A DNA stretch of 64,000 bases from an uncultured Candidatus Saccharibacteria bacterium (lineage in GTDB: Bacteria > Patescibacteriota > Minisyncoccia > Phycocordibacterales > UBA9973). This document shows, in pieces, positions 3,298 through 39,463 of this stretch. Made by a program: the position numbers and the translations under genes. The stretch spans positions 9,168-73,167 of the forward strand of contig CAYTXV010000002.1 in the NCBI GenBank assembly GCA_964441495.1, given 5' to 3'. The notes under the pieces are model-generated. The model saw only the letters and a list, made by a program, of their open reading frames with translations, did no database searches and was not told where the DNA came from. The first letter of the stretch is position 1. The number at the start of each line of letters is the position of its first letter.

Positions 3298-3320
3298 TAC
3301 TCCAAAGTATAGCACCTGTG

Positions 3321-5147: not shown

Positions 5148-5785
5148 TACGGTTTTGCTTGCGTCGTGTTTTCGCCGGGGTTAAATGTCTTGTAGAGGAG
5201 TTCAATCACCTCTTCGGTACCGAGTTGTGCAACACGAAGTCCAACACGACTGAGTCCTTGTTCAACAACAGACACGCGCTCTTCGAGTTGTGTGCGCTGC
5301 TCTTCAAAATCAGATACACCTTCCCCTTGCACGCTTGTCGGGGTTTTGTTGAGGAATGAAAATACTTTGGAAATCCCCTTCTGCTGACTCAATATCGGTG
5401 GGATATATGGTACGACCACAAAGAAACTCTTGCGCATGATGTTTACCTGGTCAGTAAACGACTGGATGAACTGGATGTACTCACGGGTTTGCACTTGGAG
5501 GAGTGGCTCAGTCTGCTCACGCAAACGGTTTTCGAGCGTCAGGATATACGGTCTGATGTCGTAGCGGCGTGATTGGATGACGATCTGGATTGGGAAATCA
5601 AGTGTGTTGAGGAAGCTCTGAAACTGCATGAGTGTCGCACGTTGCTCGTCTGCACTCTTGAGCGAGAGGTTGATAGACGAGACAAGCACTGCCATCGCAA
5701 GCGTGCCGTCTTTCATGACGATGATCCCGTCGCGAACTTCTTTGACGGGGACGAACTGTTGAGCTGGTGTGCCGACGAGTGCCAT
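5147..5785 (-). CDS. hypothetical T4SS accessory protein (loosely resembles a VirB4 N-terminal-type domain)
   Basis: 212 aa with no TM segment, translationally coupled to virB4. The pattern VKEVRDGIIVMKDGTLAMAVLVSSINLSLKS..EQ recalls N-terminal regions of conjugative ATPases. The assignment is weak. Confidence 0.45.
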   Translation of the reverse strand: MALVGTPAQQFVPVKEVRDGIIVMKDGTLAMAVLVSSINLSLKSADEQRATLMQFQSFLNTLDFPIQIVIQSRRYDIRPYILTLENRLREQTEPLLQVQTREYIQFIQSFTDQVNIMRKSFFVVVPYIPPILSQQKGISKVFSFLNKTPTSVQGEGVSDFEEQRTQLEERVSVVEQGLSRVGLRVAQLGTEEVIELLYKTFNPGENTTQAKP

Positions 5786-5813
5786 TGTGTTAAGTATACC
5801 TTATATATGTCGA

Positions 5814-6212
5814 TTATTTCTTGGGATCGATCACATCGAGACTCCAAGAGAGTGTCTTGAGTTTGCTTTCGGTGAGGCTCGTGCGCGCTTGACTTGCAGC
5901 TGCTTCGGGTACTGTTTGTTTGGGAGCAACAGGGTCCTGCTTGCGCCACAGGTAGAGGCGTGATCGCGTGTAGTAGCGGACAAATGACTCAACGACGTGG
6001 ATGAACGGCTTGTCATTGTACTTCATAAACGTAAGCGCAAGCGCAAATCCTGCACAGACTGGAGCGACGATGAGCGCGATAAATATCGGGAGGAATTTGA
6101 ACGACAGATACACGAGCCCTGCCCCGCCCGCGAGGTAGACAAACTGTCGAAACGTAAATGGTCCAAAGACTTTGTCTTCGATATCGATAAACTGTGGCAC
6201 CTTGAACTGCAT
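5814..6212 (-). CDS. PrgI-family (VirB3-like) small membrane protein
   Basis: 132 aa. MQFKVPQFIDIEDKVFGPFTFRQFVYLAGG followed by two TM helices matches the PrgI/VirB3-like architecture usually found upstream of virB4. Confidence 0.7.
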   Translation of the reverse strand: MQFKVPQFIDIEDKVFGPFTFRQFVYLAGGAGLVYLSFKFLPIFIALIVAPVCAGFALALTFMKYNDKPFIHVVESFVRYYTRSRLYLWRKQDPVAPKQTVPEAAASQARTSLTESKLKTLSWSLDVIDPKK

Positions 6213-6236
6213 GTATGTAGTGTACTACACAGAGCG

Positions 6237-6725
6237 CTACTTTTCAGGGATTTCTCGGTATGGATCTACGACAGGTTTTGCAGCAGCAGGTGCACTGTCG
6301 CCATACTCACGTTTGATCGGTGCGGTTGTTGTGGGGGTGATGAGAGGGTCGGTGAGGTGTTTTATTACATTAGAAACCTTATCTTTTATTGGTGAAGGTG
6401 TGTTTTCCATATCTCTATGAACCTCAAGAATTGTAAGTATTTCATCGATAATGTGTTGTTGTATGCCAAGCTTAAGTTCCGCGGCAAGTTCTTTAGTTGA
6501 GATGTTTTGTTCAATTGTTGTTTTTACTTCAACCAAAGGTGTTATTCCAAGTATAAACTGCAAGGTTTTGTTGCGTATATCGGTAAGCACATCTTCATTT
6601 TGAAATTTTGGCTTATATGAATCAAAAAAGACATCAAATTCTCCACCAAATAGAAAAGAATACAGCTCTTCCGGAATAGTTTCGAGTGCCTCATCTATTT
6701 GATTATTTAATTCTTTTGCATCCAT
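6237..6725 (-). CDS. hypothetical protein
   Basis: 162 aa, acidic, AT-rich codons, with no TM segment and no recognised motif. Called on operon context only. Confidence 0.45.
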   Translation of the reverse strand: MDAKELNNQIDEALETIPEELYSFLFGGEFDVFFDSYKPKFQNEDVLTDIRNKTLQFILGITPLVEVKTTIEQNISTKELAAELKLGIQQHIIDEILTILEVHRDMENTPSPIKDKVSNVIKHLTDPLITPTTTAPIKREYGDSAPAAAKPVVDPYREIPEK

Positions 6726-6734
6726 AAAATGATG

Positions 6735-9700
6735 TTATTCTTTACCTTCTAATTTTTTCTTCTGTTCTTCAATATACTTATCGAGATCTTGCCATTTCTT
6801 TTGTTCATTTTTGAGTTTGACGCGTTTTGCCTTAAGATCAGTTAGCTTTTTGAGGTTTTGAGGATTTGGTGTGTTTGCGTAAGTATCTTCTGCATCTTTG
6901 ATTTCTTTATTAAGTTCCTTAAAGTCAAATTTAAATTGTTGACGCGCCTTAATTTGTTCCAAAATTTCTTTCTTTCTGTCTTTATCGTTTTCGGCAGCTG
7001 TTACATCTACATCGAGTGCTTTTGCGGTATTTATATCTCTATCTTTTACAAAATCATAGAAACCACCATTTACTTTTTTACCAGTACTGTCTATAAATTC
7101 AATCTTTTCTCCTCGGAGTAAAGATTTTCTTTGGTCTGCTGTGAGACTTGTCGTCCAAAGCCTATCGTTTTTAAGCTTCTCCATTGCGACCACTTCCCTA
7201 AAGCCATCTTTAAGAGTTTGGTTGATTTCAGTGAGATCTTTTTCGATTTTTGCTGACTCAGTAATCTTTTTTGCGGCTTTTTTATTTGCTTCTCGTCGAG
7301 TATTTACTCCAACCATTGCTCCAATCAAAGAGTCTTCCCCCAAGAAATCACCAAGAGCATCACCTTTTTTCAGGTTTTCCGCAAATTTATCTCTTCGCTC
7401 CGCATTCATTTCTTGTACAGATTTTTTCTCCTGAGGTTTTTCAATTGCAGCAATAGCTGTTTGTGTAACATCCATTTTCAATATCGACATACGTTCCTGC
7501 TCGTACCTGTCTTTATCATTTGTTTTCCATTTATCAACTTGTGCCTTACCGTAAGCTTTAACCATTTTTTCTTCGACGATAGCATCAACTTTTGATTGGT
7601 ATTCTTTCTTAACTTTTTCGTTGTAGGCATCGATATCACCCTGACTTTGCTTGCTTTCGAGTAGTTTTGATTCAGCTTCTTGTTTTTTTTGATACCGTTC
7701 TATTTGACCATGATATCCACCTGCTGTACTTGAGGTACCAAGCCCAAGACCCATACCAGACAGAGCACTAAGCGCTTTTTGGTCCGTGTTTATACCCATT
7801 TCTTTAAATAGTGTTGATCCAAGTTGAGTTTTTCTTGCATCGAATGAAGACTTTTCTGTTGCATTGAGAGTACTAATACTGCGACGAGCTAGCCAACCAC
7901 CCATACCACTAGATTTTCCTTTGTCACGAAGCCATTCCCCTGCTTTTGATTTGTTCAGAGATGTTGCCATGCCACCTATAACCCTACCACCCATGAGGGC
8001 GCCAGCTCCAAGTGCTGCTCCACCAACAAGTCCAGTAGCTTTTTGGGCATAGTTTTGCACCATCGTTCCAAACTTGCCAGCATAGCTTTCCGCTAACCCT
8101 ACTCCTTGCTTGATCATAAAGTACACGATGAGCATAGGGATCGCGATGTAGACCACTGTTTCAAAGAAGTTTGTACCCACACGGTCTTGGTAGACCTTGA
8201 TAAAGTCAGTTTCAAGGAGTGAGTAGATCACATATAGGAAAAAGACAAAGATAGGTGCAAGTGTTGCGTATTTGGTCAAGTCACTCCACCAGTTGTTCCA
8301 GGAGAGTTCTTTGATACCGCTTACAAGCGGGACACCTCCCCTTCCGAGAAATGCAAATGGTGCAAATATCATCGCCATATACAGGCCAATCACTCGCCCG
8401 AGGAAAAAGAATGCAGTCTTCCAAAACATCATCGCAACTGCAAAGAGTATGACTGCCGCGATCAAACTCACAACGGTGTAGTACCCAGCGTACTCACTAT
8501 CGCCGACACTCAGTGTCTTGGCGCCGCCCTGGGCGGTTGTGCCATTGTCAGGGAGCATGCTCGAAGTACTGAGTACATTCATGCTAAATATCTTTTGAGG
8601 GTTAAACGATGAAACAATCTTTTCGGAGAGTGGTGTATACCCTGCGATACCTGGTTTAGGGTTTTTGACTGCGCCGGTGTTTTCATCTTTTTGGCATTCA
8701 CCATCACATACTTGTACCGAATGATAAAAGACTCGCGCGACGATATTGGATACATCAATGACAACCCGCGTAGCAAGGAGAGAAAAGTTGATGAGAAGCG
8801 CGTTGAGGATGAGCGTCACGAGGACCTTTTTGGGATTGAAGCTGCTCGTGTTAAAGACAGTCGCAAGTCCCACATAGACGAGGATAATGATGAAAAATAT
8901 ATTGCAGATGTCTCGTACGATTTGCCAACCACGGATTGCAAACTCGGCTCTGTAGGAGCTATCGCTGAGTGAATACCCGAGGAAGAAGTCGAACAGGTTA
9001 CCCATAACCCCCGCAAACCATGCAACCGGTCTATACACGAGATAGTACACAATTTGTGCAACACACCCCATAATGCTTCCGTTGAAGACTCCGCAGCTTG
9101 GGATAGCGCTCTGTGTCGGTGTTGTATCAACTGGTGTGATAGCGCCCGGAGTTTGCGCTTGCGCCTCAGCAGCAGTCTGTGGCATCCGAAACTCGGCAGA
9201 AGTTGCTATTTTGAAGTATGGCCTATTATCTCCACAAAGATTGTTAAACATCCTATAATTGGGATTTGATGGATTGTCTTGGGTCGGCAATTGTTCACCG
9301 CTTACTTCTCCCGCGCAGTACCAAGCATCGGCTTTATAGATTTCTCGATCTCCAATAGCCATAAATGTAGAGATGGGAGATGGTCTACTCCACTGTCCAG
9401 TTGTTGGGTCTGTTGTATATACCTCAGTAACAGGAAAAAGAACATTAAATTTGTCGTTTTGGAGTGTTCCGCCTGGTCGGTAGTGGTATATCTTGTCAGA
9501 ACTTTGATTTGTTGGAGTATTTTGTAATTCTTGTGTTTCGTGTGGGATTCTTGCGAACACACAAAGGTTTTCGTTTTGAGATTTACAAATACGAAGTATA
9601 AACACATAGTAACTTCCACCAGACAATCGGAAGTCGCGTATGTGATTCCACGCAGCTTCTTTTGTTCCGACAGGTTCGGTTGTTGGATCGCCAAACAGGT

Positions 9701-9956
9701 CAAGCTTAAAGCTCATCTGTAGGTTGAACCGCACGTTTGGTGTTGTTGTGTTTGGTTCAAATAAGCTATAGAGCGATAACAAAGGGTTTGGGTTTGTTCC
9801 CTTAAATAGGTTTGTATAACTTTGGTAGTCAATAGATTGCTGCGCATACGCAGGTGCAACTGACCCAAGAAGAGACGCCATAAGTACAAGCGAAAGCACG
9901 ACTACTTTTGTAGTGCGAGCGCAGAGTGTACTGAACCGACGCCAGAGATGTTTCAC
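6735..9956 (-). CDS. polytopic membrane protein, VirB6/TrbL-like channel component with a long C-terminal K/E-rich coiled coil
   Basis: 1073 aa: signal/TM, an extracytoplasmic domain of about 300 aa, at least 6 TM helices (e.g. YYTVVSLIAAVILFAVAMMFW, YATLAPIFVFFLYVIYSLL), a Gly-rich segment, then about 380 aa of charged heptad-like sequence. Confidence 0.6.
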   Translation of the reverse strand: MKHLWRRFSTLCARTTKVVVLSLVLMASLLGSVAPAYAQQSIDYQSYTNLFKGTNPNPLLSLYSLFEPNTTTPNVRFNLQMSFKLDLFGDPTTEPVGTKEAAWNHIRDFRLSGGSYYVFILRICKSQNENLCVFARIPHETQELQNTPTNQSSDKIYHYRPGGTLQNDKFNVLFPVTEVYTTDPTTGQWSRPSPISTFMAIGDREIYKADAWYCAGEVSGEQLPTQDNPSNPNYRMFNNLCGDNRPYFKIATSAEFRMPQTAAEAQAQTPGAITPVDTTPTQSAIPSCGVFNGSIMGCVAQIVYYLVYRPVAWFAGVMGNLFDFFLGYSLSDSSYRAEFAIRGWQIVRDICNIFFIIILVYVGLATVFNTSSFNPKKVLVTLILNALLINFSLLATRVVIDVSNIVARVFYHSVQVCDGECQKDENTGAVKNPKPGIAGYTPLSEKIVSSFNPQKIFSMNVLSTSSMLPDNGTTAQGGAKTLSVGDSEYAGYYTVVSLIAAVILFAVAMMFWKTAFFFLGRVIGLYMAMIFAPFAFLGRGGVPLVSGIKELSWNNWWSDLTKYATLAPIFVFFLYVIYSLLETDFIKVYQDRVGTNFFETVVYIAIPMLIVYFMIKQGVGLAESYAGKFGTMVQNYAQKATGLVGGAALGAGALMGGRVIGGMATSLNKSKAGEWLRDKGKSSGMGGWLARRSISTLNATEKSSFDARKTQLGSTLFKEMGINTDQKALSALSGMGLGLGTSSTAGGYHGQIERYQKKQEAESKLLESKQSQGDIDAYNEKVKKEYQSKVDAIVEEKMVKAYGKAQVDKWKTNDKDRYEQERMSILKMDVTQTAIAAIEKPQEKKSVQEMNAERRDKFAENLKKGDALGDFLGEDSLIGAMVGVNTRREANKKAAKKITESAKIEKDLTEINQTLKDGFREVVAMEKLKNDRLWTTSLTADQRKSLLRGEKIEFIDSTGKKVNGGFYDFVKDRDINTAKALDVDVTAAENDKDRKKEILEQIKARQQFKFDFKELNKEIKDAEDTYANTPNPQNLKKLTDLKAKRVKLKNEQKKWQDLDKYIEEQKKKLEGKE

Positions 9957-9986
9957 ACTAGCAGTGTATCACGGAGTGCAAAGTCT

Positions 9987-10952
9987 TTACCACAGATTGA
10001 GCTTGAGTCCGTACTCGAGACGTCGCTTGAGCATGTTGATGATAAAGTCATCGGGAAACGCTATAGTGAGAGATTGCTCTCGATTGTTTGCTTCGGTGAA
10101 AAATCCTGCTCGATCTGTGGTTGTATCGTTCCAAAACGGAGTTGGTACACGTCGTTGGTAGGTTGTCTGTGTGAGCCGAGGAGACTTTTGCGCGCAGTAG
10201 TTGTAAAGCTCAAGGATTTCGTCGCCCTTGAGTTTGAAGGTGTCGTGGTTTGTCACTTCACGAGCGATATCTTCGTCGGTACGGATAGATTCAGCGATCG
10301 TGTAGAAACGTCGCTCGAGTGTCTTGATATCAGCGAGCTCCTCTGGGGTAAAGACGATGTTGACATCCGCATCGCTACACTGTGGAGCTGGTGTGTTTGG
10401 ACCTGAGGGTGGTGTTGGTGGGGGTGGCACGGTTCCACCAGGAGTCGGTGTTGTCCCAGGTGGTGTGTTTGATGGAGGTGTCGGTGTCCCTGGCGTGGTT
10501 CCTGCGTTTGGATCGATATCTGCTACAAGTGTCCCGCCAGGAGTCGGTGTTGTCCCAGGTGGTGTGTTTGATGTAGGTGAATTTGTTCCAGTTGTTGTGC
10601 TAGACGGGCTTGTCGGGATAAGTGTGTCATTGGTAAACGTACTTGTCTGTGTACCAGGTGCACTAAGCGATCCATCGATAGGTGGTGTCTGTCCAGGAGT
10701 GAGTGCACCTGGTGAAGTCGGTTGTCCTGGCGGTGTCTGTCCAGATGCACCTTCATCAAACGAAGAGTTTAGTGTCCCACCAGGTGCTTCAGTACCCTGC
10801 CCTTGTTTGGTTGAACCTGTCACAAATTCACGAAAGGTAGGTTTAGGCGCATTGTTTTGTGTTGCGGTCTTGCGCGCACCAAGCCACAGGATGCCAAGCA
10901 CGATAGCCACGATGATGATGAGTATGAAGATGATAGTGAAAAATCGACGCAT
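9987..10952 (-). CDS. membrane-anchored Pro/Thr-rich protein (hypothetical)
   Basis: 321 aa with an N-terminal TM (FFTIIFILIIIVAIVLGILWL), a long P/T/G low-complexity linker with duplicated NTPPGTTPTPGGT, and a globular C-terminus. Confidence 0.55.
   Translation of the reverse strand: MRRFFTIIFILIIIVAIVLGILWLGARKTATQNNAPKPTFREFVTGSTKQGQGTEAPGGTLNSSFDEGASGQTPPGQPTSPGALTPGQTPPIDGSLSAPGTQTSTFTNDTLIPTSPSSTTTGTNSPTSNTPPGTTPTPGGTLVADIDPNAGTTPGTPTPPSNTPPGTTPTPGGTVPPPPTPPSGPNTPAPQCSDADVNIVFTPEELADIKTLERRFYTIAESIRTDEDIAREVTNHDTFKLKGDEILELYNYCAQKSPRLTQTTYQRRVPTPFWNDTTTDRAGFFTEANNREQSLTIAFPDDFIINMLKRRLEYGLKLNLW
10438..10573. repeat. 37-bp perfect direct repeat (10438..10474 and 10537..10573), 99 bp period
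   Basis: ccaggagtcggtgttgtcccaggtggtgtgtttgatg occurs twice. The copies are in frame (33 codons apart) inside the P/T-rich linker of the 321-aa protein. Confidence 0.9.
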
Positions 10953-10955
10953 ATA

Positions 10956-13091
10956 TTATAGAGTACTATAGAAATACTGACTTGAGAGTATCGACTGCTC
11001 TACAAATGGGTTTGGCGCATCGCTCTCTACTCGGGCAATGGGGACAATTGGTGATGTATCAACAACATAGGCATTGTTGATACAAGTAGCATCTACAGGT
11101 GTACCAGCTGCTGCTTGAGATGCGATGTAGCGAGTCTTTGCTCTTCCGACGATTCGCTGTATCTCATCATAGATCGCTTGGAGTTGTTCAACAGCGTCTT
11201 CGGTGTCGGTGATATTTTGCGCGTACTGACGATCGTACGCAGAGATGTTTCTATTGTACGATACGAGGCGCTCTGTTTCTCTGTATGCGCTTCGTGCAAA
11301 TGCACGCGCATCCGCTTGTGCAAACGCTCCGGACTCGAGTGCTGCATACGCGTTTGCAAGAGAATCCCTATCAAACCCAGCATTTGTATACTCCTGAATA
11401 AGTGAATCAAATGATCTCTGCAAAAAACCGGGTATTTCGCGAAAAATGCCAGATGCACCAAACCCTGTCGCAGCATATACATGAGGACTCGTTGATCGTT
11501 GTGTATCAGTAACTTTGTCATAGATAACTGGAGTACCAGCGAGTATTGGTGGTGGCCCATCATTTCCTCCAAAGAGCCCACCAAGAATTGGGATACTACT
11601 CAAGAATCCTTGCACAGCGTTTGGACCGTTGGGTGATGGTTGTTGGAGCGAGCCAAGTATGGTTTGAAAGTTTTCTGAGAGCCCGCTTTGCCATGTCGGG
11701 TTGGGCCCAGGGAGACAGTAATCAAGTGCGCCGAGTGTAGGAACGATACGGTTCATCGCTACTTGGGCATCTTTTGCGCGGTTGATGTAGTCAAGCTGTG
11801 TCTTGATGATCGCGCGGAGTTGTTGTGGTCGACTGATATCGAGGTCTCCGGTGAATCCCCCACTTACTGAACCTACCTGTCCACCAAGCTGGTTTGCGGT
11901 ATCTGCGAAGCTTCCGAGTGGTGCGCCGTTGGTACCGAGGACTACGTTTGTACCCATCCCTGTACCTGCGCTTATTCCTGCCCTCCCTCCTCTACTCAAG
12001 CTTCCGAGCCCGTTTCTAAAGAGGTTGTTGAGCAGATTATCAAAAAACGATCCAAGCACCTCGTTTATCTTGTCTGCTTGCTCGAGCTGGCGAACCGCAG
12101 AGTTGGTCACGTATGCAGTTTGCTGCGCGATGAGGGCGCCAGGTGTCACTGTTTCGTATCGCAGGCATTTACGACCTGCTTGTGTAGTCGATGCGGTTGT
12201 CGGAGCACTTGTATCTACCATACCTGGAGGGATTTCATCGAGCGGTGTTCCGTTTACTGTATTTGCACCCGCAGTTTGCACGCCCCACTCCACACACTTT
12301 TTCATTGAGAGGAAGCCATCACCTTGTTGGAGTTCGTTTTGTACGTTTTCTTGCGCAGTGTCGATGTTTTTGCTGACCTGCTGTACCGCGTCAAAGTATG
12401 CACTGAGTGGATTGTTTTGCGGATTCAAGAGACTGTTCCACCCACCTTGTGTGAAGTCTTGTTGGAAGCTCTGGTACGCACGAGCCTGAGGCGTGTTCAT
12501 CACTTGGTTGATACGACCATCACTATACCCAGTCACCTGCTGTGTCACCACTGAACGGATCGCATTGCCAAAGATAGGGTTTGTTGTTGGGACCTGACTC
12601 AAGAAACTTTGGAGCTTCTGATCACGGATCGATCGGAGGTATGAATCAATATCCCTGACATAGAGTGGGTTGCCGTCAAACCCTGTGTTGACCCAGTTGA
12701 GTGTTTTGTTCGACACTTGCTGGAGTACATTTTTGGCCATCGAGTATGCGATACCGTCGAGACAGTTTTCTTTTTTTGCCTGCTTTTTTTGCTGATCAAG
12801 CGCTTTTTGATCTATAGTTGGTACTTCCTGGCTTACTCCAACTGCTTTATAAAGAGCGCCTGTTGCTGGTTCTACTGTTGTTTTGAATAAGTCTCGTGCA
12901 GCACTTGAGATAGTACTGCCGATGTTGGTGCAGTTGAGGATCGCACTACCGACTCCACTAAAGCTCATCCCTTGGAAACTACTCCCTGTACCACTGTTTG
13001 TAGAAAAGCTTGGGTTAAAGGTTTGCGCACTCACCCCCTGCGGGATGAGGAGAAGTGCTATATATATACCAAGTGATAGTTTCCGGAGCAT
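10956..13091 (-). CDS. large secreted hypothetical protein
   Basis: 711 aa with a signal peptide (MLRKLSLGIYIALLLIPQGVSAQ). No family recognised. Tightly packed in the T4SS-like operon. Confidence 0.55.
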   Translation of the reverse strand: MLRKLSLGIYIALLLIPQGVSAQTFNPSFSTNSGTGSSFQGMSFSGVGSAILNCTNIGSTISSAARDLFKTTVEPATGALYKAVGVSQEVPTIDQKALDQQKKQAKKENCLDGIAYSMAKNVLQQVSNKTLNWVNTGFDGNPLYVRDIDSYLRSIRDQKLQSFLSQVPTTNPIFGNAIRSVVTQQVTGYSDGRINQVMNTPQARAYQSFQQDFTQGGWNSLLNPQNNPLSAYFDAVQQVSKNIDTAQENVQNELQQGDGFLSMKKCVEWGVQTAGANTVNGTPLDEIPPGMVDTSAPTTASTTQAGRKCLRYETVTPGALIAQQTAYVTNSAVRQLEQADKINEVLGSFFDNLLNNLFRNGLGSLSRGGRAGISAGTGMGTNVVLGTNGAPLGSFADTANQLGGQVGSVSGGFTGDLDISRPQQLRAIIKTQLDYINRAKDAQVAMNRIVPTLGALDYCLPGPNPTWQSGLSENFQTILGSLQQPSPNGPNAVQGFLSSIPILGGLFGGNDGPPPILAGTPVIYDKVTDTQRSTSPHVYAATGFGASGIFREIPGFLQRSFDSLIQEYTNAGFDRDSLANAYAALESGAFAQADARAFARSAYRETERLVSYNRNISAYDRQYAQNITDTEDAVEQLQAIYDEIQRIVGRAKTRYIASQAAAGTPVDATCINNAYVVDTSPIVPIARVESDAPNPFVEQSILSSQYFYSTL

Positions 13092-13093
13092 AT

Positions 13094-13975
13094 CTATGAT
13101 CCAAGTATACCGTACTCAGCCAGATAATCACGCATGGTAGCTGCTGCGGTATCAAATGATAGGCTGTACTCTTTGTAGATAGCAACCCCGACAAGTGCAG
13201 AGAGTCCGTTATCAGAGAGTTCTTGGATATATCCAAACGAATCTGCAACTCCTGCAACTGCATTGGTCATCTCAAGGTGGTACGGCGCCACACCGATTGG
13301 TGTTTTGGTTGCGATGAGTTCTTTGGCAAGCGCGCGGTATGAGGCTGCTGTTGTATCAAGTTCTGCGAGTCCACTCTCGTCGCCGTTTTCGACTGCTTGG
13401 ACGATCACGTCGAGTTCCGCTTGCCCTTTGTCGTATTTGGTAAGGATCTTTTGTAGTGTTGTACTGTAAGCGATGAGTGATTGACTTGTTGTTTTGATAG
13501 TCTGAACGTCTTTGGCAGAGTATCTATTGGTGACAAGGTCTGTTTGGATGTTTGTTCCAAACTGGGCTGCGATTTGATTAAGGGTTGTGTTGTCTACCTC
13601 GTCTGATTGACCAAGTGCTGTTGCGAGAGTAAACAGTTCTCGAGAGAGCTTGTCGGTTTCGTTGAGCGTGCTTGTATCTACTGGTGCGACACCGAGCGAC
13701 TGTTTCTTTTCTTCAATGATTTGCTTGTTAGGTACACCATTTGTATACAGGACGGTTGGATCAAGTCCCCAGAGGCGCTCTTCCCAGTCTGCGATGCCGT
13801 TACCGTTAGAGTCTTTGTCGATGACGTCTCCTACTGTTGGTGAGTCTGCAACGATATTTTTTGGTGCTTTGTTAAACAAGGCGCGGAACCATGTTGTCTG
13901 GACGACAAGTACAACTGCAACAACCGCGATTGCGATACTTCCTCGAACGATAAATTGTTTACTTGGTTTGTGCAT
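13094..13975 (-). CDS. membrane-anchored hypothetical protein
   Basis: 293 aa with an N-terminal TM anchor (GSIAIAVVAVVLVVQTTWF). It ends 2 nt before the next gene. Confidence 0.5.
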   Translation of the reverse strand: MHKPSKQFIVRGSIAIAVVAVVLVVQTTWFRALFNKAPKNIVADSPTVGDVIDKDSNGNGIADWEERLWGLDPTVLYTNGVPNKQIIEEKKQSLGVAPVDTSTLNETDKLSRELFTLATALGQSDEVDNTTLNQIAAQFGTNIQTDLVTNRYSAKDVQTIKTTSQSLIAYSTTLQKILTKYDKGQAELDVIVQAVENGDESGLAELDTTAASYRALAKELIATKTPIGVAPYHLEMTNAVAGVADSFGYIQELSDNGLSALVGVAIYKEYSLSFDTAAATMRDYLAEYGILGS

Positions 13976-13980
13976 ACAAT

Positions 13981-14535
13981 CTATCTAGATACTCCGTACT
14001 TAACCACCTTGAATGCTGGTAAAGGAGTTCCTGTTTCCGGATTGTAACATGTAGACATATTAGGAATCGCGTTGTACATACCCAGGACATACCCACTACT
14101 CCTTGGTGTACCACCACCAAAATTAGATGCAATAGATTGTTGTGCAGCACGAGAATCTTTTAATTGATTTACAAGACGCTGTTCTTCTTGGAGTTGGCTC
14201 GAGGTGGGGTTTCCACTCATATAACTACTACTGGTTCGAATATTTCTTAATTGGTCTAAAATATTTTTTTCTCTTGTTCCCTCCGAACTAAACTTATCTG
14301 TAGTTATAAAATACGGTCCAAATGTTGCAATATTAAACGGTTGGATTGTGAATGGTCCATGAATTGCGCTACATACAATTGTTGACGCCATTTGTGGAGC
14401 AGTTAACAGTACTCTCCCACCAAATGGCACAGTGAGAGCTGATGATCCGCCAGAAAACCCTAGTGTCGCATGGGTGATATATGGCACAGTGAGCATGCCG
14501 AGAAAGAGAAGAATGAGTTGTCGGTGATGTTTCAT
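13981..14535 (-). CDS. secreted hypothetical protein
   Basis: 184 aa with a signal peptide (LILLFLGMLTVPYITHA). It starts 6 nt downstream of the rsmA stop. Confidence 0.5.
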   Translation of the reverse strand: MKHHRQLILLFLGMLTVPYITHATLGFSGGSSALTVPFGGRVLLTAPQMASTIVCSAIHGPFTIQPFNIATFGPYFITTDKFSSEGTREKNILDQLRNIRTSSSYMSGNPTSSQLQEEQRLVNQLKDSRAAQQSIASNFGGGTPRSSGYVLGMYNAIPNMSTCYNPETGTPLPAFKVVKYGVSR

Positions 14536-26818: not shown

Positions 26819-27270
26819 TGAAACGTATCAAAAAGATCTGGGAACAGCTCTTTGGTGATTTGCCCTACCCACCGCATACGACACTGTGCCAAGATATACT
26901 TTATCGCGCACTTTGTTACAGAGAAGATTATATGCGGATTGTTTTTGATGTAGAAAATCATCGTATTTCTAACGAAAATGATCAGGTTGAAGTTCTTACA
27001 AAAGTAGAAGACAATATCCGCGCTCTCCATGAGATGTTGTTGCAGTTTCGAAACCTTCTACACTGCGTTTCCCATGAGCCGATTCATCGTAAGGAGCTCA
27101 ATAGCCTTATTGAAGATGTTCAGTTTGATTATGAACGGGTTGCTACAGAAATTGATTTGATTTGCGATGATTTTGACAGACTTTATGGGCATCTCCTGTG
27201 GACCATGGGGTGTTTCCCTACCGCAAAGATTCGCTGCGAAGAGCAGTACTACGTTCCTCAAAACAACTAA
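26819..27270 (+). CDS. hypothetical protein
   Basis: 150 aa from MKRIKKIWEQLF. The upstream part of the track ORF (from 26548) overlaps the terminator and is unlikely to be coding. The hairpin aacaccccTTTGTATggggtgtt follows the stop. Confidence 0.45.
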
Positions 27271-27291
27271 CACCCCTTTGTATGGGGTGTT

Positions 27292-27660
27292 TTATTTGTC
27301 TGTTATGTTGAGGTAGTGCTGGTATTCGAGTGCGGTTTCGGGGACATGGTACTTGTTTGCTTTGCACCAAGCGATGAATGCTTCGACAGAGTGAGGGTCG
27401 AGGACTTCCCTCTCGTGTGTTTCTGGGCGACTTTTGGCAAATGGGTCCACTGCCCGATAGGTTGCTTTGGGAGAAGTGCCCTCTTTGATGACCCATCCGT
27501 TTTGCATGAGGCGTTTGAGGACTGATTGGATGGTTACACGACTTTTGCCGAGGATGAGCGCGAGTTCATGAGGTGATGCTGGTCGTTTGATCCGAGTGAG
27601 ATACTGCAGTACCGCAACGTATGCTACCTGTTCCCCGCCTACTTTGATGCTTTCTTGCAT
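27292..27660 (-). CDS. winged-helix (MarR/IclR-N-like) DNA-binding protein
   Basis: 122 aa. VAYVAVLQYLTRIKRPASPHELALILGKSRVTIQSVLKRLMQNGWVIKEG is a typical wHTH. The C-terminal 50 aa are unassigned. Confidence 0.65.
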   Translation of the reverse strand: MQESIKVGGEQVAYVAVLQYLTRIKRPASPHELALILGKSRVTIQSVLKRLMQNGWVIKEGTSPKATYRAVDPFAKSRPETHEREVLDPHSVEAFIAWCKANKYHVPETALEYQHYLNITDK

Positions 27661-27662
27661 AG

Positions 27663-27695
27663 TTACACTTTACAGTAAAGTGTAAAGTATTGCAA
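27663..27695 (-). promoter_or_regulatory. promoter of the wHTH gene overlapped by a 23-bp perfect palindrome (putative operator)
   Basis: The minus strand reads TTGCAA(27695..27690)-N17-TAAAGT(27672..27667)-6 nt-ATG(27660). The palindrome TTACACTTTACAGTAAAGTGTAA spans 27663..27685, covering the spacer and -10. Confidence 0.5.
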
Positions 27696-29207
27696 TTACT
27701 TACGAACGCCGTGTTTCATGTGTAACTTTCCAACTTCTGCCTCGTTTACTTTCTCCTTTGTATCTTTTGCCTTTTCTCCAAGTACTTTGAGGTCTTTGTC
27801 CTCGAGCTCGTCCAGATCTTTGGCTCGTTCAGTGAGGGTTTCGATAGTATTAAGGTTAGGGTTTTCGAGGACTTCTTCGAGAAGGGCGTGGAGTATCCAA
27901 CCCATACGGGGTCCCGGTTTCATGTGTAACGTTTGTATAAGGTAGGCGCCGTCTATCGCAAGTTGCGATACAGAGATCGGGTCGCGAAGCGCTTCTTCGA
28001 TCATTGCGTGGTATTTGCGCAGGCGATAGGGGGCTTCTGCCTTTTTCATACCGACACGGTCGCACTCGCGTACCTGCATCAGTGTCCAGATGTGCTCAGG
28101 ACCAACTTTTTGGATGATTCTTCGGACAGCAGAGAGGGTGATCTGCTCAGTATCTGAGAAAAACATATGGTTTCGCACAAGAGAGGTTACACGTGTAACT
28201 GTTTCACGTGAAAAGCGAAGCCTATCGAGTATCATCCGTGCCATACGAGCACCGACCACTTCATGCCCAAAAAAGGTGTATTTATCGCGCGATCGGTCAT
28301 ATCTGCGGGTTGCAGGCTTGCCGATGTCATGAAACAAGGCTGCGAGACGGACTTCCAGAGGATATCCTTTGTCTGCTGCATGCTGGAGTGCGTGCAGGAG
28401 GTGTTCATAAACATCGTATATATGGGCACCTTTTTGGTCGCACCCGATACCTTGCTGGAGTTCTGGGATGATGTGTTTGAGGAGTCCGGTCTTTTCGAGC
28501 AGGGCTACTCCGAAGCTTGGAGTAGGGGAATTGATGATTTTGACCAGTTCATCTCGGATACGTTCTCCAGATATTTGTGCCAGGAGGTCTGCATGTTTTG
28601 TGACAGCACCAAGTGTTTCATGTGTAACGGTAAACCCAAGTGTTGTGGAAAACCTGACTGCTCGGAGCATCCGGAGCGCATCCTCTTGGAAGCGTACCTC
28701 TGGGTAAAGGACACATTTGATAGATTTGTCCTTTATGTCTTTTTGTCCATTATACGGGTCTACAATAGTGTCCGAGATAGGATCCCAGGCGATTGCGTTC
28801 ATCGTGAAGTCTCGTCGCTCGAGGTCTTTGGTAAGCTCTGTTTCATATGAAACGCTATCTGGACGGCGATTGTCGCTATAGGAGCCTTCGGATCGGTAGG
28901 TGGTTATCTGTACAGTATTGTCCTGGTCAGGTGTTACACCTGCCTGCGCAGGCAGGCGTGAATCCTTGTCTGGAGGCATATTGAGCACGGTGACTGTTCC
29001 AAATGCATTTTCGTGTACTGTCTTGAGGGTTGGGAACAGTGCAACAACTTCCTCAGGGTGAGCATTTGTGGTGATGTCCCAGTCTTTGGGAGTACCACCC
29101 ATAAGGAGATCTCGAACACAGCCGCCAACCAGGTACGCCTCAAAACCCGCTTCTTGCAGGGTAGTGGTTACACGTGTAACAAATGAGGGTATTGATGAGA
29201 TATCCAT
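27696..29207 (-). CDS. cca: CCA-adding tRNA nucleotidyltransferase with a C-terminal HD domain
   Basis: 503 aa with GGCVRDLLMG..PKDWDITT, ...RRDFTMNA... and HD-domain residues (LFHDIGKP). Confidence 0.9.
   Translation of the reverse strand: MDISSIPSFVTRVTTTLQEAGFEAYLVGGCVRDLLMGGTPKDWDITTNAHPEEVVALFPTLKTVHENAFGTVTVLNMPPDKDSRLPAQAGVTPDQDNTVQITTYRSEGSYSDNRRPDSVSYETELTKDLERRDFTMNAIAWDPISDTIVDPYNGQKDIKDKSIKCVLYPEVRFQEDALRMLRAVRFSTTLGFTVTHETLGAVTKHADLLAQISGERIRDELVKIINSPTPSFGVALLEKTGLLKHIIPELQQGIGCDQKGAHIYDVYEHLLHALQHAADKGYPLEVRLAALFHDIGKPATRRYDRSRDKYTFFGHEVVGARMARMILDRLRFSRETVTRVTSLVRNHMFFSDTEQITLSAVRRIIQKVGPEHIWTLMQVRECDRVGMKKAEAPYRLRKYHAMIEEALRDPISVSQLAIDGAYLIQTLHMKPGPRMGWILHALLEEVLENPNLNTIETLTERAKDLDELEDKDLKVLGEKAKDTKEKVNEAEVGKLHMKHGVRK
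28186..28199. repeat. 14-bp perfect palindrome GTTACACGTGTAAC (copy 1), followed by palindrome TTTCACGTGAAA at 28202..28213
   Basis: Read directly from the sequence. Lies inside cca and encodes VTRVT. Confidence 0.95.
28939..28956. repeat. 18-bp perfect palindrome CCTGCCTGCGCAGGCAGG, copy 2 (in frame in cca, encodes LPAQAG)
   Basis: Read directly from the sequence. It overlaps the 15-bp palindrome CAGGTGTTACACCTG (28928..28942). (29207-28955) is divisible by 3. Confidence 0.95.
29167..29180. repeat. 14-bp perfect palindrome GTTACACGTGTAAC (copy 2)
   Basis: Read directly from the sequence. Lies in codons 10-14 of cca and encodes VTRVT in the same frame as copy 1. Confidence 0.95.
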
Positions 29208-29225
29208 AGGATATTAAGAATATAG

Positions 29226-29297
29226 TGCACCTACCAGGATTCGAACCCAGAATAACGGTTCCGAAGACCGCTGTGATATCCATTTCACCATAGGTGC
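29226..29297 (-). tRNA. tRNA-Arg (anticodon TCG), CCA not encoded
   Basis: Manual cloverleaf on the reverse complement: acceptor GCACCTA/TAGGTGC, anticodon arm GCGGT-CTTCGGA-ACCGT, T-loop TTCGAAT. The T stem has two G-U pairs. Confidence 0.75.
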
Positions 29298-29382
29298 GTA
29301 CCCGCACTATACCACTATTTATCCAACCAATAAAGTATCGTTGCAAAATACACAATCATGCGTATACTAGGGATGTCTAACC

Positions 29383-29453
29383 GCAGTCATAGTTTAGTGG
29401 TAGAACGACTCGTTGCCAACGAGTAGGTTGGGGTCCGATTCCCCATGATTGCA
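29383..29453 (+). tRNA. tRNA-Gly (anticodon GCC), CCA not encoded
   Basis: Acceptor GCAGTCA/TGATTGC, anticodon arm ACTCG-TTGCCAA-CGAGT, T arm TGGGG-TCCGATT-CCCCA. Confidence 0.85.
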
Positions 29454-29467
29454 CAAAATAGATCGAT

Positions 29468-29498
29468 ACAAAAAGACCGGGAAAACCGGTCTTTTTGT
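29468..29498. terminator. intrinsic terminator (bidirectional shape)
   Basis: acaaaaagaccgg-gaaaa-ccggtctttttgt forms a 13-bp stem flanked by A and T runs. Confidence 0.7.
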
Positions 29499-29648
29499 AT
29501 GAAACATGACTGTCTATTAGACAAAATGCGTCTAATATGGGGATAAAACTGTTATTTTTCAACAAAACTGTGGATAACTCGGGGTATAAGTGGGATAACA
29601 GACATCCTATAGACGTACTTTATCAGTCCTTGAACTCGATACAGTACG

Positions 29649-30011
29649 ATGGTACACGTGAAACGGTTTACTTCTCCAACACAAAAACGTGGCGCCCGTG
29701 GTGAAGCACTTGCAGTCGAGTTTCTCCAGAGAGAGGGTTTCACCATAGTCGCTCGAAACGTTTCAGGAAGCTATGGCGAGATAGATATCATCGCCAAAAA
29801 GGGTGGCGTGTACTACTTTTTTGAAGTAAAAGCAGGCAATCCTGCAACTGGTATACACCCCGCAGAAAACCTCACTCCTACCAAGATCCGCAAAGTCCTT
29901 GGCACAGTAGCGTACTACGCCATGATTCACCATATAGGGGAGTACAGAGTAGAAGGGGTCATTGTACTTATGGGGGACAATCCTTCTATATACCGAACAG
30001 AGCTTTTTTAG
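29649..30011 (+). CDS. yraN: YraN-family (UPF0102) endonuclease-like protein
   Basis: 120 aa with RGARGEALAVEFLQREGFTIVARN...GEIDIIAKKGGVYYFFEVKA. Confidence 0.8.
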   Translation: MVHVKRFTSPTQKRGARGEALAVEFLQREGFTIVARNVSGSYGEIDIIAKKGGVYYFFEVKAGNPATGIHPAENLTPTKIRKVLGTVAYYAMIHHIGEYRVEGVIVLMGDNPSIYRTELF

Positions 30012-36748: not shown

Positions 36749-39463
36749 CTACTGAAATCGTGCCATGATCTCGGCTTCGACTTCCTCTTTAGGACGGCCG
36801 TACTTGAGGTATGAGAGCTCTTTGAGTTTCTCGGCAACAGTCGGGTTGCCCTGCGGAGGAAATGGGGTGACGGAGTTGAACGGCTTGGCAGGGACGCCAC
36901 CGACGAGCATTTTGATATAGCAGTTGAGGTTTTGGAGCTTGATGATGTCAGCTGGGGTAAAGACAGGTGCAAACTGCTGCTCAAACACCGCTGCATTCTC
37001 AGGTGAGACGCGGTGTACCACCATCGTGCCGACGTTTCCAAAGATTGCGTTTTTGATGTTTTCTTGGAGCTGTTCGATGTACTGATGGGCGACAGTGAGC
37101 GATAGGCGGTACTTGCGTGCTTCTGAGAGGATCGTCGAGATAGAGTCGGTGGTGACGTTCTGAAACTCATCGATGTAGAGATAGAAGTCGTTCACTGCTT
37201 GTTTGCCGACGATGTCCACACGAGAGAGTGCTGCCATCGTTATCTTGCCGACGAGGAGGAGGCCGATGAGGTTTGAGTTGATGTCACCAAGCCGACCTTT
37301 GGAGAGGTTCACAAGGAGGATTTTCTTTTCATCCATGATTTGGCGGAAGTTGAGTACGCTTTGTTGCTGCGCAACAACCGGGCGCATGATGTCGTTGGAG
37401 ATGAAGACATCAAACTTGTTGGTGATGTAGGGGACGAAGTTGGCAAGCGCACTCTCACCAGTTGTCTTTTCGGCATTTTGCCAGAACTGTTTGATGATCG
37501 GGTTTTTGCAGCGCTCAAGTTTCATATCGCGAAATGCTTTGTCAGAGAGGACGCGTCCGATCTCAAGGAGTGTCGAGCCAGATGCGGGGTCCTCCATCAC
37601 AAGTCCGCACGCATTGCGGAAGTACTGTTCAAACATCGGACCACCAGCAACCTTCATATCAAAGAGTTTGTTAAAGATCGCAAGGAGTTCGTTGATAACA
37701 AAGATCTTTTGCTCAGGGAAGCGCTCGTCGTACTCGAGCATGTTGAGCCCCATCGGACGCGCAGTATGTGCTGGATCAAAGTAGATGACGTCGTCGATGC
37801 GCTCAGGAGGGATGTTGGCAAGGATGTGATCGATATCGGTGCCGTGTGGATCGATGAAGCAGACACCATCACCGTTTTTGATGTCTTGGATAATCATGTT
37901 TTTGAGAAAGACGGTCTTACCAGTACCAGTCTGACCGATGACATAGCAGTGACGAACACGGTCTTCGCGGGCAAAGATAATCGGTGTTTGCTGTCCGCGG
38001 TATGTGTTGGTACCAAGTGTGATACCTGTCTGCGCAGGCAGGCCTGAACCTTGCGAAAAGGTGGGCGCGGGTGCACTTGCTGCAGAGGATTCTCGGAGTT
38101 CGGGTGCAGGAGTGATGCCGACGGGGAAATGAAAGAGTGTCGCGAGCTCGTCGATGTTGAGCGGAAACTGCGCATCTTGGCGAAGTGTACGAAATGTAAA
38201 GTCGCGGATTGTTTGGGGAAGCGCTTTGGCAGAGACGTCATACCAGACGAGTGAGTTGCCACCGACGAGTGCAAACTGCGCAAACGATGCCTTGATAGTC
38301 TGCAGGATGCTCGCTGCGCGAGTACTCGCTCCAGCAGTTGCGATGATGCGGATACCTGTACCGACAACCTGAGATTTGTTTTTGGTGTTCAACAGCTCAA
38401 GAGTACGCGTGTCGAGCGGCTTTGGTTCGTCGGACTTTTCTTCTTTGGGTGACTCAAAGAGTGAGAGAAATGTTTTGCCAAACTCTGCACCGATTGACGC
38501 GTTTGCTTCTTTGTAGAGCTCTTTGACGGTGGTACCAGGCGTTTGCGCACCTTCGGCGAGCTTGGTGTAGAGCGCGTTTGCACCCCACTGGTCGCGACTG
38601 ATCACAAACTGTATCGCTGCGCCTTCACCAGACTGTTCGAGTTGTGAAAGGGACGCGATGAGTGCTGCGAGTGGATCGTGTTCGAACTGTGCATCGGTGT
38701 TGAGCGGCAGGTAGTGATCTTCTTTGAGACCTGCGACACTTGCGGCGATGGCAGGACTTGCAGTGCCAAATATATTGTAGTCATCGACAACCTCATCGAT
38801 GATCGCAGTTGGGTAGTATGCGTGGACCAGCTTCTCAAATGTCGCGCCATACTCAGCTGGTACTGCTCCATAGAGCGCGATATCACGCGAACTGTTCTGT
38901 ACTGCAAGCTCAAGGACATAGTAGTCTCTATCGAGGAGTCCGATCATACCCGCATAGAACTGCTTCATCGCTTGGATGAAGCTTTTGAACGCAACATCAC
39001 CTGCTCCTGTCGGAAGTGTCACCGCAAAGAGTGAGTGACGAAGTTCACGTTCAAGCGTGCTACGGTCTTTGAGTCCCGGGATCGCGCCAACGGTGTGCAG
39101 GTACTGCACGAGGAAGCGGTGAAAGTCATCCGCAAGGTGTGGGTCGTTCATTGCTTGGACAACATCGAGCGCATTTTTTACTCCTTTGTCGAGCATGAGC
39201 GCAAAGAGTTCTTCTATCTTGTGGTCGTGTGTTTCAGGTTTGAGTCTTAGAATGATACGCTCTGTTTCATGAGGAGCGAGCTTTTGTGTTTCATGGATGA
39301 AGTTTGTTGCTTCGGCATGCGCGTACTGTTCGATCGTTGTTTTTGCAGCACTTTCGATGTTGGCATGAGGCACTGATTGCGCGATGTACTCTCGGTGTGA
39401 CTGGGCACCGAGCCACGCGATTTCTTGCTTTGGCGTTGCAAGTGTTTCTTTGGGAGCGAGCAT
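36749..39463 (-). CDS. VirD4/TraG/TraD-like coupling-protein ATPase with a large atypical N-terminal domain
   Basis: 904 aa. The C-terminal half has Walker A VIGQTGTGKT, Walker B FYLYIDEFQN and ARKYRLSLTVAHQYIEQL. The N-terminal ~470 aa have no TM helices and no family I recognise. Confidence 0.75.
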   Translation of the reverse strand: MLAPKETLATPKQEIAWLGAQSHREYIAQSVPHANIESAAKTTIEQYAHAEATNFIHETQKLAPHETERIILRLKPETHDHKIEELFALMLDKGVKNALDVVQAMNDPHLADDFHRFLVQYLHTVGAIPGLKDRSTLERELRHSLFAVTLPTGAGDVAFKSFIQAMKQFYAGMIGLLDRDYYVLELAVQNSSRDIALYGAVPAEYGATFEKLVHAYYPTAIIDEVVDDYNIFGTASPAIAASVAGLKEDHYLPLNTDAQFEHDPLAALIASLSQLEQSGEGAAIQFVISRDQWGANALYTKLAEGAQTPGTTVKELYKEANASIGAEFGKTFLSLFESPKEEKSDEPKPLDTRTLELLNTKNKSQVVGTGIRIIATAGASTRAASILQTIKASFAQFALVGGNSLVWYDVSAKALPQTIRDFTFRTLRQDAQFPLNIDELATLFHFPVGITPAPELRESSAASAPAPTFSQGSGLPAQTGITLGTNTYRGQQTPIIFAREDRVRHCYVIGQTGTGKTVFLKNMIIQDIKNGDGVCFIDPHGTDIDHILANIPPERIDDVIYFDPAHTARPMGLNMLEYDERFPEQKIFVINELLAIFNKLFDMKVAGGPMFEQYFRNACGLVMEDPASGSTLLEIGRVLSDKAFRDMKLERCKNPIIKQFWQNAEKTTGESALANFVPYITNKFDVFISNDIMRPVVAQQQSVLNFRQIMDEKKILLVNLSKGRLGDINSNLIGLLLVGKITMAALSRVDIVGKQAVNDFYLYIDEFQNVTTDSISTILSEARKYRLSLTVAHQYIEQLQENIKNAIFGNVGTMVVHRVSPENAAVFEQQFAPVFTPADIIKLQNLNCYIKMLVGGVPAKPFNSVTPFPPQGNPTVAEKLKELSYLKYGRPKEEVEAEIMARFQ
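38025..38042. repeat. 18-bp palindrome copy 3, one mismatch (CCTGTCTGCGCAGGCAGG), in frame in the VirD4-like gene, encodes LPAQTG
   Basis: Read directly from the sequence. (39463-38041) is divisible by 3. Confidence 0.95.

Follow-up and report, generated by a model that had tools for sequence, protein, structure and literature searches.

The classic example of a chromosomal parS site inside a coding sequence is the one within spo0J of Bacillus subtilis. Dense parS arrays near oriC are known from Myxococcus xanthus, Corynebacterium glutamicum and Streptomyces, and Streptococcus pneumoniae has a ParB-parS-SMC system without ParA. To our knowledge, nothing about chromosome segregation or origin organisation has been established experimentally in the candidate phyla radiation (CPR)/Patescibacteria. 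Here we describe a cluster of palindromic sites in and beside cca, the gene for the CCA-adding tRNA nucleotidyltransferase, in a 64-kb stretch of contig CAYTXV010000002.1 from a CPR bacterium (the window, to which all coordinates given without a locus name refer). In our judgement these 14-mers are likely to be a parS array of the chromosome, in other words a centromere made up of clustered ParB binding sites.

Chromosomal parS is a known kind of element. It was not previously described for this phylum in the literature that we searched: we found no paper joining parS with Patescibacteria or Parcubacteria, a full-text query combining parS, ParB and Patescibacteria gave none, and ParB goes unmentioned in Kantor 2013. 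An earlier note on this DNA had listed several of the palindromes and interpreted them as a possible operator, decoy or silencing array for a neighbouring winged helix-turn-helix (wHTH) protein or as a family of palindromic mini-insertions, using the phrase "parS-like site set" in passing. By consensus match to parS, the passing phrase named the right kind of element.

Palindromic sites in the window

We scanned the whole window for the generalised 14-mer GTTWCAYRTGWAAC at up to one mismatch, with the expectation taken from 100 shuffles. Eight matches were found, at 27713, 27917, 28186, 28201, 28615, 28840, 29167 and 29651. All of them lie within 27713-29664, against a shuffle expectation of 0.27 ± 0.51 (maximum 2), and the remaining 62 kb of the window contain no match at this threshold. 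The sites and the two genes that carry them are as follows.

27696..29207, minus strand: cca, CCA-adding tRNA nucleotidyltransferase, 503 aa; host of seven full sites and one remnant
29649..30011, plus strand: UPF0102/YraN-family gene (YraN below), divergent from cca; second conserved host of sites in relatives
27533: isolated heptamer GTTACAC
27713..27726: parS-like site GTTTCATGTGTAAC; 16-mer TGTTTCATGTGTAACT, three mismatches to textbook parS; in the C-terminal tail of cca, read as KLHMKH in frame 2
27917..27930: parS-like site GTTTCATGTGTAAC; in cca, TLHMKP in frame 2; present at up to one mismatch in 22/81 orthologues
28186..28199: parS-like site GTTACACGTGTAAC; in cca, VTRVT; abuts the 28201 site, 15 bp centre to centre
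28201..28214: best site in the window; in cca, FSRET; 16-mer TGTTTCACGTGAAAAG (28200-28215)
28615..28628: parS-like site GTTTCATGTGTAAC; in cca, VTHET in frame 0; present at up to one mismatch in 23/81 orthologues
28840..28853: parS-like site GTTTCATATGAAAC; in cca, VSYET
28928..28942: CAGGTGTTACACCTG, with a single half-site GTTACAC; in the head domain of the cca product, within its variable surface loop
29167..29180: parS-like site GTTACACGTGTAAC; cca codons 10-14, VTRVT; the most conserved position
29651..29664: parS-like site GGTACACGTGAAAC; overlaps the YraN start codon, ATG GTA CAC GTG AAA C

The best 16-mer, TGTTTCACGTGAAAAG, whose core had been recorded as TTTCACGTGAAA at 28202, has two mismatches to textbook parS, both at the outer edge. 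An identical run of 16 nt is common to 27711-27726 and 28613-28628, and the 28928 element CAGGTGTTACACCTG is probably a decayed site.

Every element in the earlier note is present at its coordinates. Its count of the heptamer GTTACAC was likewise correct: of 13 copies in the window on both strands, 10 lie in 27533-29180 and the others only at 7463, 20014 and 46846. The hybrid 14-mers do span two reading frames of cca, as it had stated (frame 0, read as VTHET, and frame 2, read as LHMK). Its placement of the cluster inside cca is right for the seven full sites there but not for the 29651 site, one of two sites that it did not contain (the other being GTTTCATATGAAAC at 28840). Because GGTACACGTGAAAC at 29651 overlaps the start codon of the next gene, the cluster is not limited to cca.

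Similarity to chromosomal parS

The conserved chromosomal parS sequence is TGTTNCACGTGAAACA, with half-parS sequences GTTTCAC and GTTCCAC (PMC7022226). We scanned the window at up to three mismatches with the textbook 16-mer TGTTTCACGTGAAACA, which is independent of the window sequence, and obtained six matches where 0.54 were expected in 64 kb, all of them within 27712-29665. That a motif taken from outside the window hits solely this cluster supports its identity as parS. The best window site, cTGTTTCACGTGAAAAg at 28200, comes close to the universal chromosomal parS.

The consensus of the sites points the same way. The symmetrised frequency matrix of 470 sites from the 80 loci of relatives described below reads a-t-GTTTCACGTGAAAC-a-t, with degeneracy at positions 4 and 11 (W) and a CAYRTG centre. 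The flanking T/A, which the search pattern left unconstrained, reaches 57% against a background of about 30%, so that the complete 16-bp parS consensus tGTTTCACGTGAAACa emerges.

Distribution in relatives

To compare cca among relatives, we took one genome per species and obtained 80 cca loci, all from metagenome-assembled genomes (MAGs) of the Paceibacteria/Parcubacteria type, with cca 51-75% identical and flanks of up to 10 kb per side. The degenerate 14-mer at up to one mismatch gives 472 sites in these loci, about 463 of which fall within -2000 to +2000 of the cca start; beyond this zone the background is about 0.003 sites per kb, and roughly 1 Mb of flank is essentially empty. The textbook 16-mer behaves in the same manner. 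Within the zone (296 kb) there are 12 perfect, 44 one-mismatch and 150 two-mismatch matches, compared to none, none and three in the 1060 kb outside it, and 43/80 loci have at least one site with up to one mismatch to it. Sites that are few and confined to a single region are what is expected of parS, and this is what we see in the sequence sampled: none of the eight window matches lies outside 27713-29664, and in the relatives 206 matches lie inside the zone and 3 outside.

The comparison of cca that the earlier note had proposed thus finds sites in 76/80 loci. The array is thus widespread and not universal: sites are absent from four loci, and a few others contain just one or two. Arrays in the relatives comprise 6-15 sites within about 4 kb and occupy cca, the divergent YraN gene and the stretch between them, which in the window holds tRNA-Arg and tRNA-Gly. 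In 60-66 of the 80 loci, YraN, cca, exoIII and Xer keep their synteny, and the array has YraN as a syntenic neighbour in 65/80. Between YraN and cca, non-coding sites most often take the perfect form GTTTCACGTGAAAC (22/89), which is concentrated within 60 bp of the YraN start. The relatives' site at that start is usually this canonical sequence, located either at the start or up to 60 bp upstream. The commonest forms inside cca are GTTACACATGAAAC and GTTACACATGTAAC; the coding sites are variants. As judged from the sequences compared, the array is anchored at the divergent YraN-tRNA-cca locus of Paceibacteria/Parcubacteria and is largely written into the coding sequence of cca.

As a positive control, we repeated these scans on 80 metagenomic parAB loci taken at random (635 kb). 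These yielded 44 perfect and 15 one-mismatch parS, with 0-2 sites in most loci. One control locus, L112, has 7 sites in 2.1 kb, which shows that dense parS arrays exist elsewhere.

Two of the relatives' loci depart from the usual layout. In L008, sites occur beyond cca, at 13578 inside a wHTH homologue (QEVTHET) and at 12466 at the start of the preceding open reading frame (ORF; FHMKPF), which indicates that the array can extend into adjoining cargo genes. In L082 (JGI Ga0558120_00123, 9112-9962), only the C-terminal 189 residues of cca are present, fused directly to an S74-peptidase gene. The contig lacks the 5' two-thirds of cca, and with it half of the parS array, as well as YraN and the tRNA genes; the sister contig L083 from a related sample is intact. 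The truncation is either a natural deletion variant or a misassembly.

Selection on the DNA of cca

In a codon alignment of 81 cca genes, the 29167 site (codons 10-14) is retained at up to one mismatch in 57/80 orthologues, while its peptide varies among VTHVT, VSHVT, VSYVT, VTRVT and VSRVT. The remaining window sites in cca are found in only 4-23 of the 81 orthologues. Where a site is missing, the residues are unrelated (VKFSD for VSYET, FPKKE for FSRET, TDLVV for VTRVT), so sites arise at tolerant positions and turn over.

We then picked 126 modules of the form V[ST][HRY][EV]T by peptide alone and compared their codon use with background.

Val, position 1: GTT, 98% in modules, 34% in background
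Ser: TCA, 83% in modules, 27% in background
Thr, position 2: ACA, 95% in modules, 40% in background
His: CAT, 100% in modules, 59% in background
Arg: CGT, 76% in modules, 26% in background
Glu: GAA, 100% in modules, 70% in background
Val, position 4: GTA, 98% in modules, 30% in background
Thr, position 5: ACA, 71% in modules, 40% in background

The ACA codon at position 5 provides the last (16th) base of the parS 16-mer. Of 259 sites in cca, 199 are in one reading frame; a second frame is used as well, and sites also occur in YraN and outside genes. The hybrid site can be read as GTT ACA CAT GAA AC, giving V-T-H-E-T, or as G TTA CAC ATG AAA C, giving L-H-M-K. Its orientation is constant because the reverse would give a Cys codon in the first frame and a TAA stop in the second. 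These data show that the sites are kept by selection on DNA rather than on protein. The earlier claim of conservation at the DNA level is thereby upheld, by near-fixed codons, varying peptides and the use of two frames.

The expanded loop of the CCA-adding enzyme

Residues ~77-93 of the window's cca product form a 17-residue insertion relative to the solved CCA-adding enzyme 6ibp, in a hairpin of the head domain. Across 81 orthologues the length of this loop ranges from 8 to 75 residues and correlates with the number of sites in it (Spearman 0.60, p = 2e-9). All 68 of the 68 loop sites are in frame 0, and relatives have 1-6 full in-frame sites. In L014 (10220-10359), six loop sites spaced 24-27 bp apart encode VPHET..VSRET..VTHET..VSPET..VPHET..VPRVT. 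The alignments indicate that this surface loop is one that grew through in-frame tandem sites.

We also observed that among the orthologues, L014, L043 and L051 among them, this hairpin loop (28911-28985 in the window, residues ~75-99) consists largely of V-[ST]-x-E-T modules, which are translated parS sites. Short loops are likewise rich in E-T (GAAAC) motifs.

DnaA boxes and possible proximity to the origin

A small group of DnaA-box-like sequences stands beside the array.

29538..29598, minus strand: three 9-mers resembling DnaA boxes, all in the same orientation, 50-110 bp upstream of the YraN start
29538: TTATCCCCA, imperfect
29569: TTATCCACA, perfect
29590: TTATCCCAC, imperfect

In the relatives, 60 perfect DnaA boxes fall in the ~106 kb made up by the 1.5 kb upstream of each cca, compared to about 20 in ~1200 kb, and 58/65 loci have 1-3 boxes within 400 bp upstream of YraN. 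We note that perfect TTATCCACA is about 30-fold enriched beside the array in these loci. The boxes there lie some 80-240 bp upstream of the YraN start, next to the parS anchor, often as a tandem pair spaced 21 bp or an inverted pair spaced 36 bp. The role of this element could lie in an origin, in regulation of the YraN promoter by DnaA or in titration of DnaA.

Gene order in relatives places the locus in the vicinity of dnaA. In L009, dnaA directly adjoins YraN, and in ten Parcubacteria genomes the distance from cca to dnaA-dnaN is 23-43 genes (supplement of PMC4508563). As regards an oriC at ~29.5 kb itself, each locus has only 1-3 boxes (in the window one perfect and two imperfect), and the window has no skew switch.

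The wHTH gene and its palindrome

The wHTH gene, to which the earlier note had tied the array, has a palindrome of its own.

27292..27660, minus strand: wHTH gene, TrmB/MarR-like, 122 aa; sits between cca and exoIII
27663..27685: 23-bp perfect palindrome TTACACTTTACAGTAAAGTGTAA, immediately upstream of the wHTH start codon and separate from the parS array
L008, 13333-13355; L083, ~3540-3565; L086, ~1637-1662: copies of the palindrome in relatives

The sequence TTACACTTTAywGTAAAGTGTa stands 3-4 nt upstream of the ATG in every wHTH orthologue (four lineages), amid intergenic DNA that is otherwise unrelated. A palindrome that moves with the wHTH gene in this way appears to be the gene's own operator-like element, and from its position it is probably an autoregulatory wHTH operator. 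Its architecture is TTACAC-N11-GTGTAA, with half-sites 11 nt apart, whereas the half-sites of the 14-mer abut. The palindrome, which the earlier note had placed on the wHTH promoter, does overlap a -10-like TAAAGT; the promoter match is weak, at 8/12 consensus positions, and does not appear in the consensus-scan list. The 3-4 nt between palindrome and ATG leave no space for a ribosome-binding site, and this suggests that the wHTH transcript would be leaderless and autoregulated.

The wHTH gene itself is rare. A homologue occurs in 1/80 cca loci (L008, 1.8 kb from cca and behind two other genes), and in a small subclade, L083-L086, the gene directly follows cca. A search of 5.8 billion proteins returned only 9 homologous clusters at E ≤ 1e-5, and the window's wHTH protein was found only on a 2.4-kb Logan contig; exact look-ups of the cca, MBL and TIM proteins gave no record. 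By this distribution the wHTH gene is lineage-specific cargo that has nothing to do with the array.

The binding protein and alternative explanations

Several observations weigh against our interpretation of the sites as a ParB-bound centromere. No ParB or ParA turned up anywhere in the 64 kb, nor at any of the 80 loci (21 kb, with up to 10 kb on either side of cca), by a six-frame scan for the GERR motif and by tblastn with B. subtilis Spo0J and Soj, even at E ≤ 1. A search for Spo0J homologues gave only Bacillus proteins and no Paceibacteria ParB, and a metagenome scan with a five-species ParB alignment gave 80 ordinary parAB loci, none with the miaA neighbourhood expected for Parcubacteria. 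ParB is therefore the inferred binder. The window sites have 2-4 mismatches to the 16-mer, and there is no perfect parS in the 64 kb. A CATG or TATA-type centre replaces CG in four of the eight sites, and non-CG centres would weaken binding in model ParB proteins. The window also has no dnaA and its GC skew changes sign nowhere; origin proximity here thus rests on the gene order of relatives. Finally, COG1475, the ParB/Spo0J family, also includes ParB-like proteins that are not centromere binders.

As indirect support for ParB, COG1475 is listed in 13 Parcubacteria genomes, including RAAC4_OD1_1 (Nelson and Stegen 2015 supplementary gene table, PMC4508563), and smc, scpA and scpB are listed alongside in most of them. 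COG1192 (Soj/ParA) is absent from the same table, which lists only widely shared genes. RAAC4_OD1_1 (AWSN01000001.1) is the genome of L036, one of the loci with an array; OZ246398.1 and OY969557.1 are further Paceibacteria genomes bearing one. A ParB-like gene appears in the TIGR-Tas paper but has no bearing here.

The explanation put forward in the earlier note, that the sites are an operator, decoy or silencing array for the adjacent TrmB/MarR-like wHTH protein, draws on the position of the wHTH gene directly downstream of cca in the window and in subclade L083-L086, and on the hexamer TTACAC, which the wHTH palindrome has in common with one variant half-site. We regard it as very improbable. 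As many as 79/80 loci lack a wHTH homologue while 76/80 have the array, and only the 9 clusters mentioned exist database-wide. The palindrome travels with its own gene, as in L008, and spaces its half-sites differently. Orthologues of cca without a wHTH neighbour carry the same sites, and by this finding, which the earlier note had itself named as decisive, the wHTH-operator explanation is refuted. A conserved binder other than ParB is a different matter. The YraN protein, which has a nuclease fold, or a CPR factor of another kind could bind the sites and regulate YraN and cca, or control replication together with the DnaA boxes. This would account for the lack of a ParB gene near the array, the synteny of YraN in 65/80 loci with the strongest site at its start or promoter, the conserved DnaA boxes alongside and the many non-canonical centres. 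We nevertheless find it distinctly unlikely: the consensus, including its unconstrained flanks, is that of the universal parS, ParB-family genes are present in Parcubacteria genomes including one that bears an array, and 6-15 sites across 3-4 kb of coding DNA are what a nucleation centre typically shows, unlike an operator at a promoter. We know of no sequence-specific binding by UPF0102 proteins, which counts against YraN as the binder.

It could also be argued that the sites are not bound at all and arise as a by-product of protein conservation, codon bias or chance, through peptides such as VTRVT and LHMK. Most sites are indeed coding, 199/259 in cca share one frame, and some positions are partly pre-adapted, for example in the "ET" of an I-E-x-E-T motif. 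This explanation is scarcely credible given that synonymous codons are near-fixed, that peptides vary while the DNA is kept, that siteless orthologues differ in their residues, and that a second frame, YraN and non-coding DNA carry the motif as well, with 8 sites in the window where 0.27 are expected. Nor do we give much weight to mobile, miniature inverted-repeat transposable element (MITE)-like palindromic mini-insertions or to a genome-wide uptake, methylation or restriction motif; short perfect palindromes and identical repeats (three copies of GTTTCATGTGTAAC) might suggest one or the other, but both are highly improbable, with zero copies in the other 62 kb and about 1 Mb of essentially empty flanks in relatives. 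The sites are in frame and conserved in position at 51-75% protein identity, and they show no terminal repeats or target duplications. They arose via substitutions at aligned codons or in-frame growth of the loop, not as discrete insertions. The family of mini-insertions proposed earlier is therefore not upheld: it is absent from the rest of the sampled genome, and the sites are in frame and position-conserved. RNA-hairpin, restriction-modification, uptake-sequence and MITE readings were rejected on the arguments from distribution and frame alone.

If the sites are a parS array, ParB dimers encoded elsewhere in the genome would nucleate on it, close as CTP-dependent clamps and spread over the neighbourhood, where they would recruit SMC-ScpAB, and ParA if present. 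Loading of SMC would then organise and segregate the origin-proximal part of the chromosome, possibly independently of ParA. The non-coding and near-canonical sites would serve as strong anchors and the many coding variants would raise local occupancy, the degenerate sites being a compromise between ParB recognition and the codons of cca; in relatives, the non-coding anchor next to the YraN start keeps the canonical sequence. YraN might in addition be repressed through the site over its start codon.

It is tempting to speculate further that the only centromere of the Paceibacteria chromosome is a "coding centromere", in which degenerate parS sites in cca and YraN were added via in-frame V-[ST]-[HR]-E-T cassettes that expanded the loop from 8 to as many as 75 residues, beside a mini-cluster of DnaA boxes, and which works with ParB and SMC without ParA. 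In that case these minimal chromosomes might have their organising centre, or even their origin, in the YraN-cca intergenic region and not at dnaA. We offer this fuller picture tentatively, as it seems to us more likely wrong than right.

Other features of the window

By its gene content, the window is an unremarkable part of a CPR chromosome, with genes for KsgA, UvrD, a ComM-like protein, Xer, ExoIII, RNase Y, ClpP, trigger factor, NusA, TIM, PGK, RecJ and ComEC, together with type-IV-secretion-like genes. The latter form two sets, at 563-5147 and 36749-39463, with a TraG/VirB4-like P-loop ATPase, a pilin-like protein with an SLT domain and a TrwB/VirD4-like coupling protein. No Pfam match was obtained for several large ORFs in 5147-14535, such as 6735-9956 (1073 aa) and 10956-13091 (711 aa). 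The 452-aa protein encoded at 53610-54968 has weak Hint/intein-like and pretoxin-HINT matches and may be a polymorphic toxin or a Hint-domain surface protein. A hairpin resembling a bidirectional terminator, AACACCCC...GGGGTGTT, flanked on either side by T-runs, occupies 27269-27291 between the wHTH gene and a convergent ORF ending at 27270.

Comparison with known systems

The array is a conserved and easily recognised landmark of the probable Paceibacteria segregation centre, which could be used for orienting MAG assemblies, locating origins and designing ParB-parS experiments. It also offers a natural case of a binding-site array and a coding sequence evolving under joint constraint, visible as near-fixed codons, turnover of sites at tolerant positions and an enzyme loop built from cassettes. 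What we describe belongs to a familiar class of element, parS, whose setting here is unusual; it is no new regulatory system tied to the wHTH gene.

For that gene, the closest comparison concerns the 23-bp palindrome only. Like the operators of autoregulated MarR/TrmB-type wHTH repressors, it is a perfect inverted repeat over a -10-like TAAAGT, lies directly upstream of the gene and is kept in four lineages; as a putative operator it differs in its weak promoter match (8/12). The array resembles the ParA-less system of S. pneumoniae in that no ParA/Soj was found in the window or the loci, and in that COG1475, smc and scpAB are listed for Parcubacteria and COG1192 is not; as the table covers only widely shared genes, absence of ParA is a possibility. 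With the parS of the ParABS systems of B. subtilis and Caulobacter crescentus it shares the same 16-bp palindrome, which is rare, regionally clustered and tolerated inside genes. Different here are the 6-15 mostly degenerate sites in about 4 kb, their location at YraN-tRNA-cca rather than at parAB, and the lack of any parB nearby.

The C. glutamicum case is treated in PMC7083940. The dense oriC-proximal arrays and control locus L112 are similar to the Paceibacteria array in having several to many parS within a few kb, as one ParB nucleation zone. However, those arrays and the control loci lie beside parAB and their sites are mostly perfect (44/71 in the control, compared to 12/206 in Paceibacteria). 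Unlike any of them, the Paceibacteria array is in frame within a housekeeping enzyme whose surface loop has expanded.

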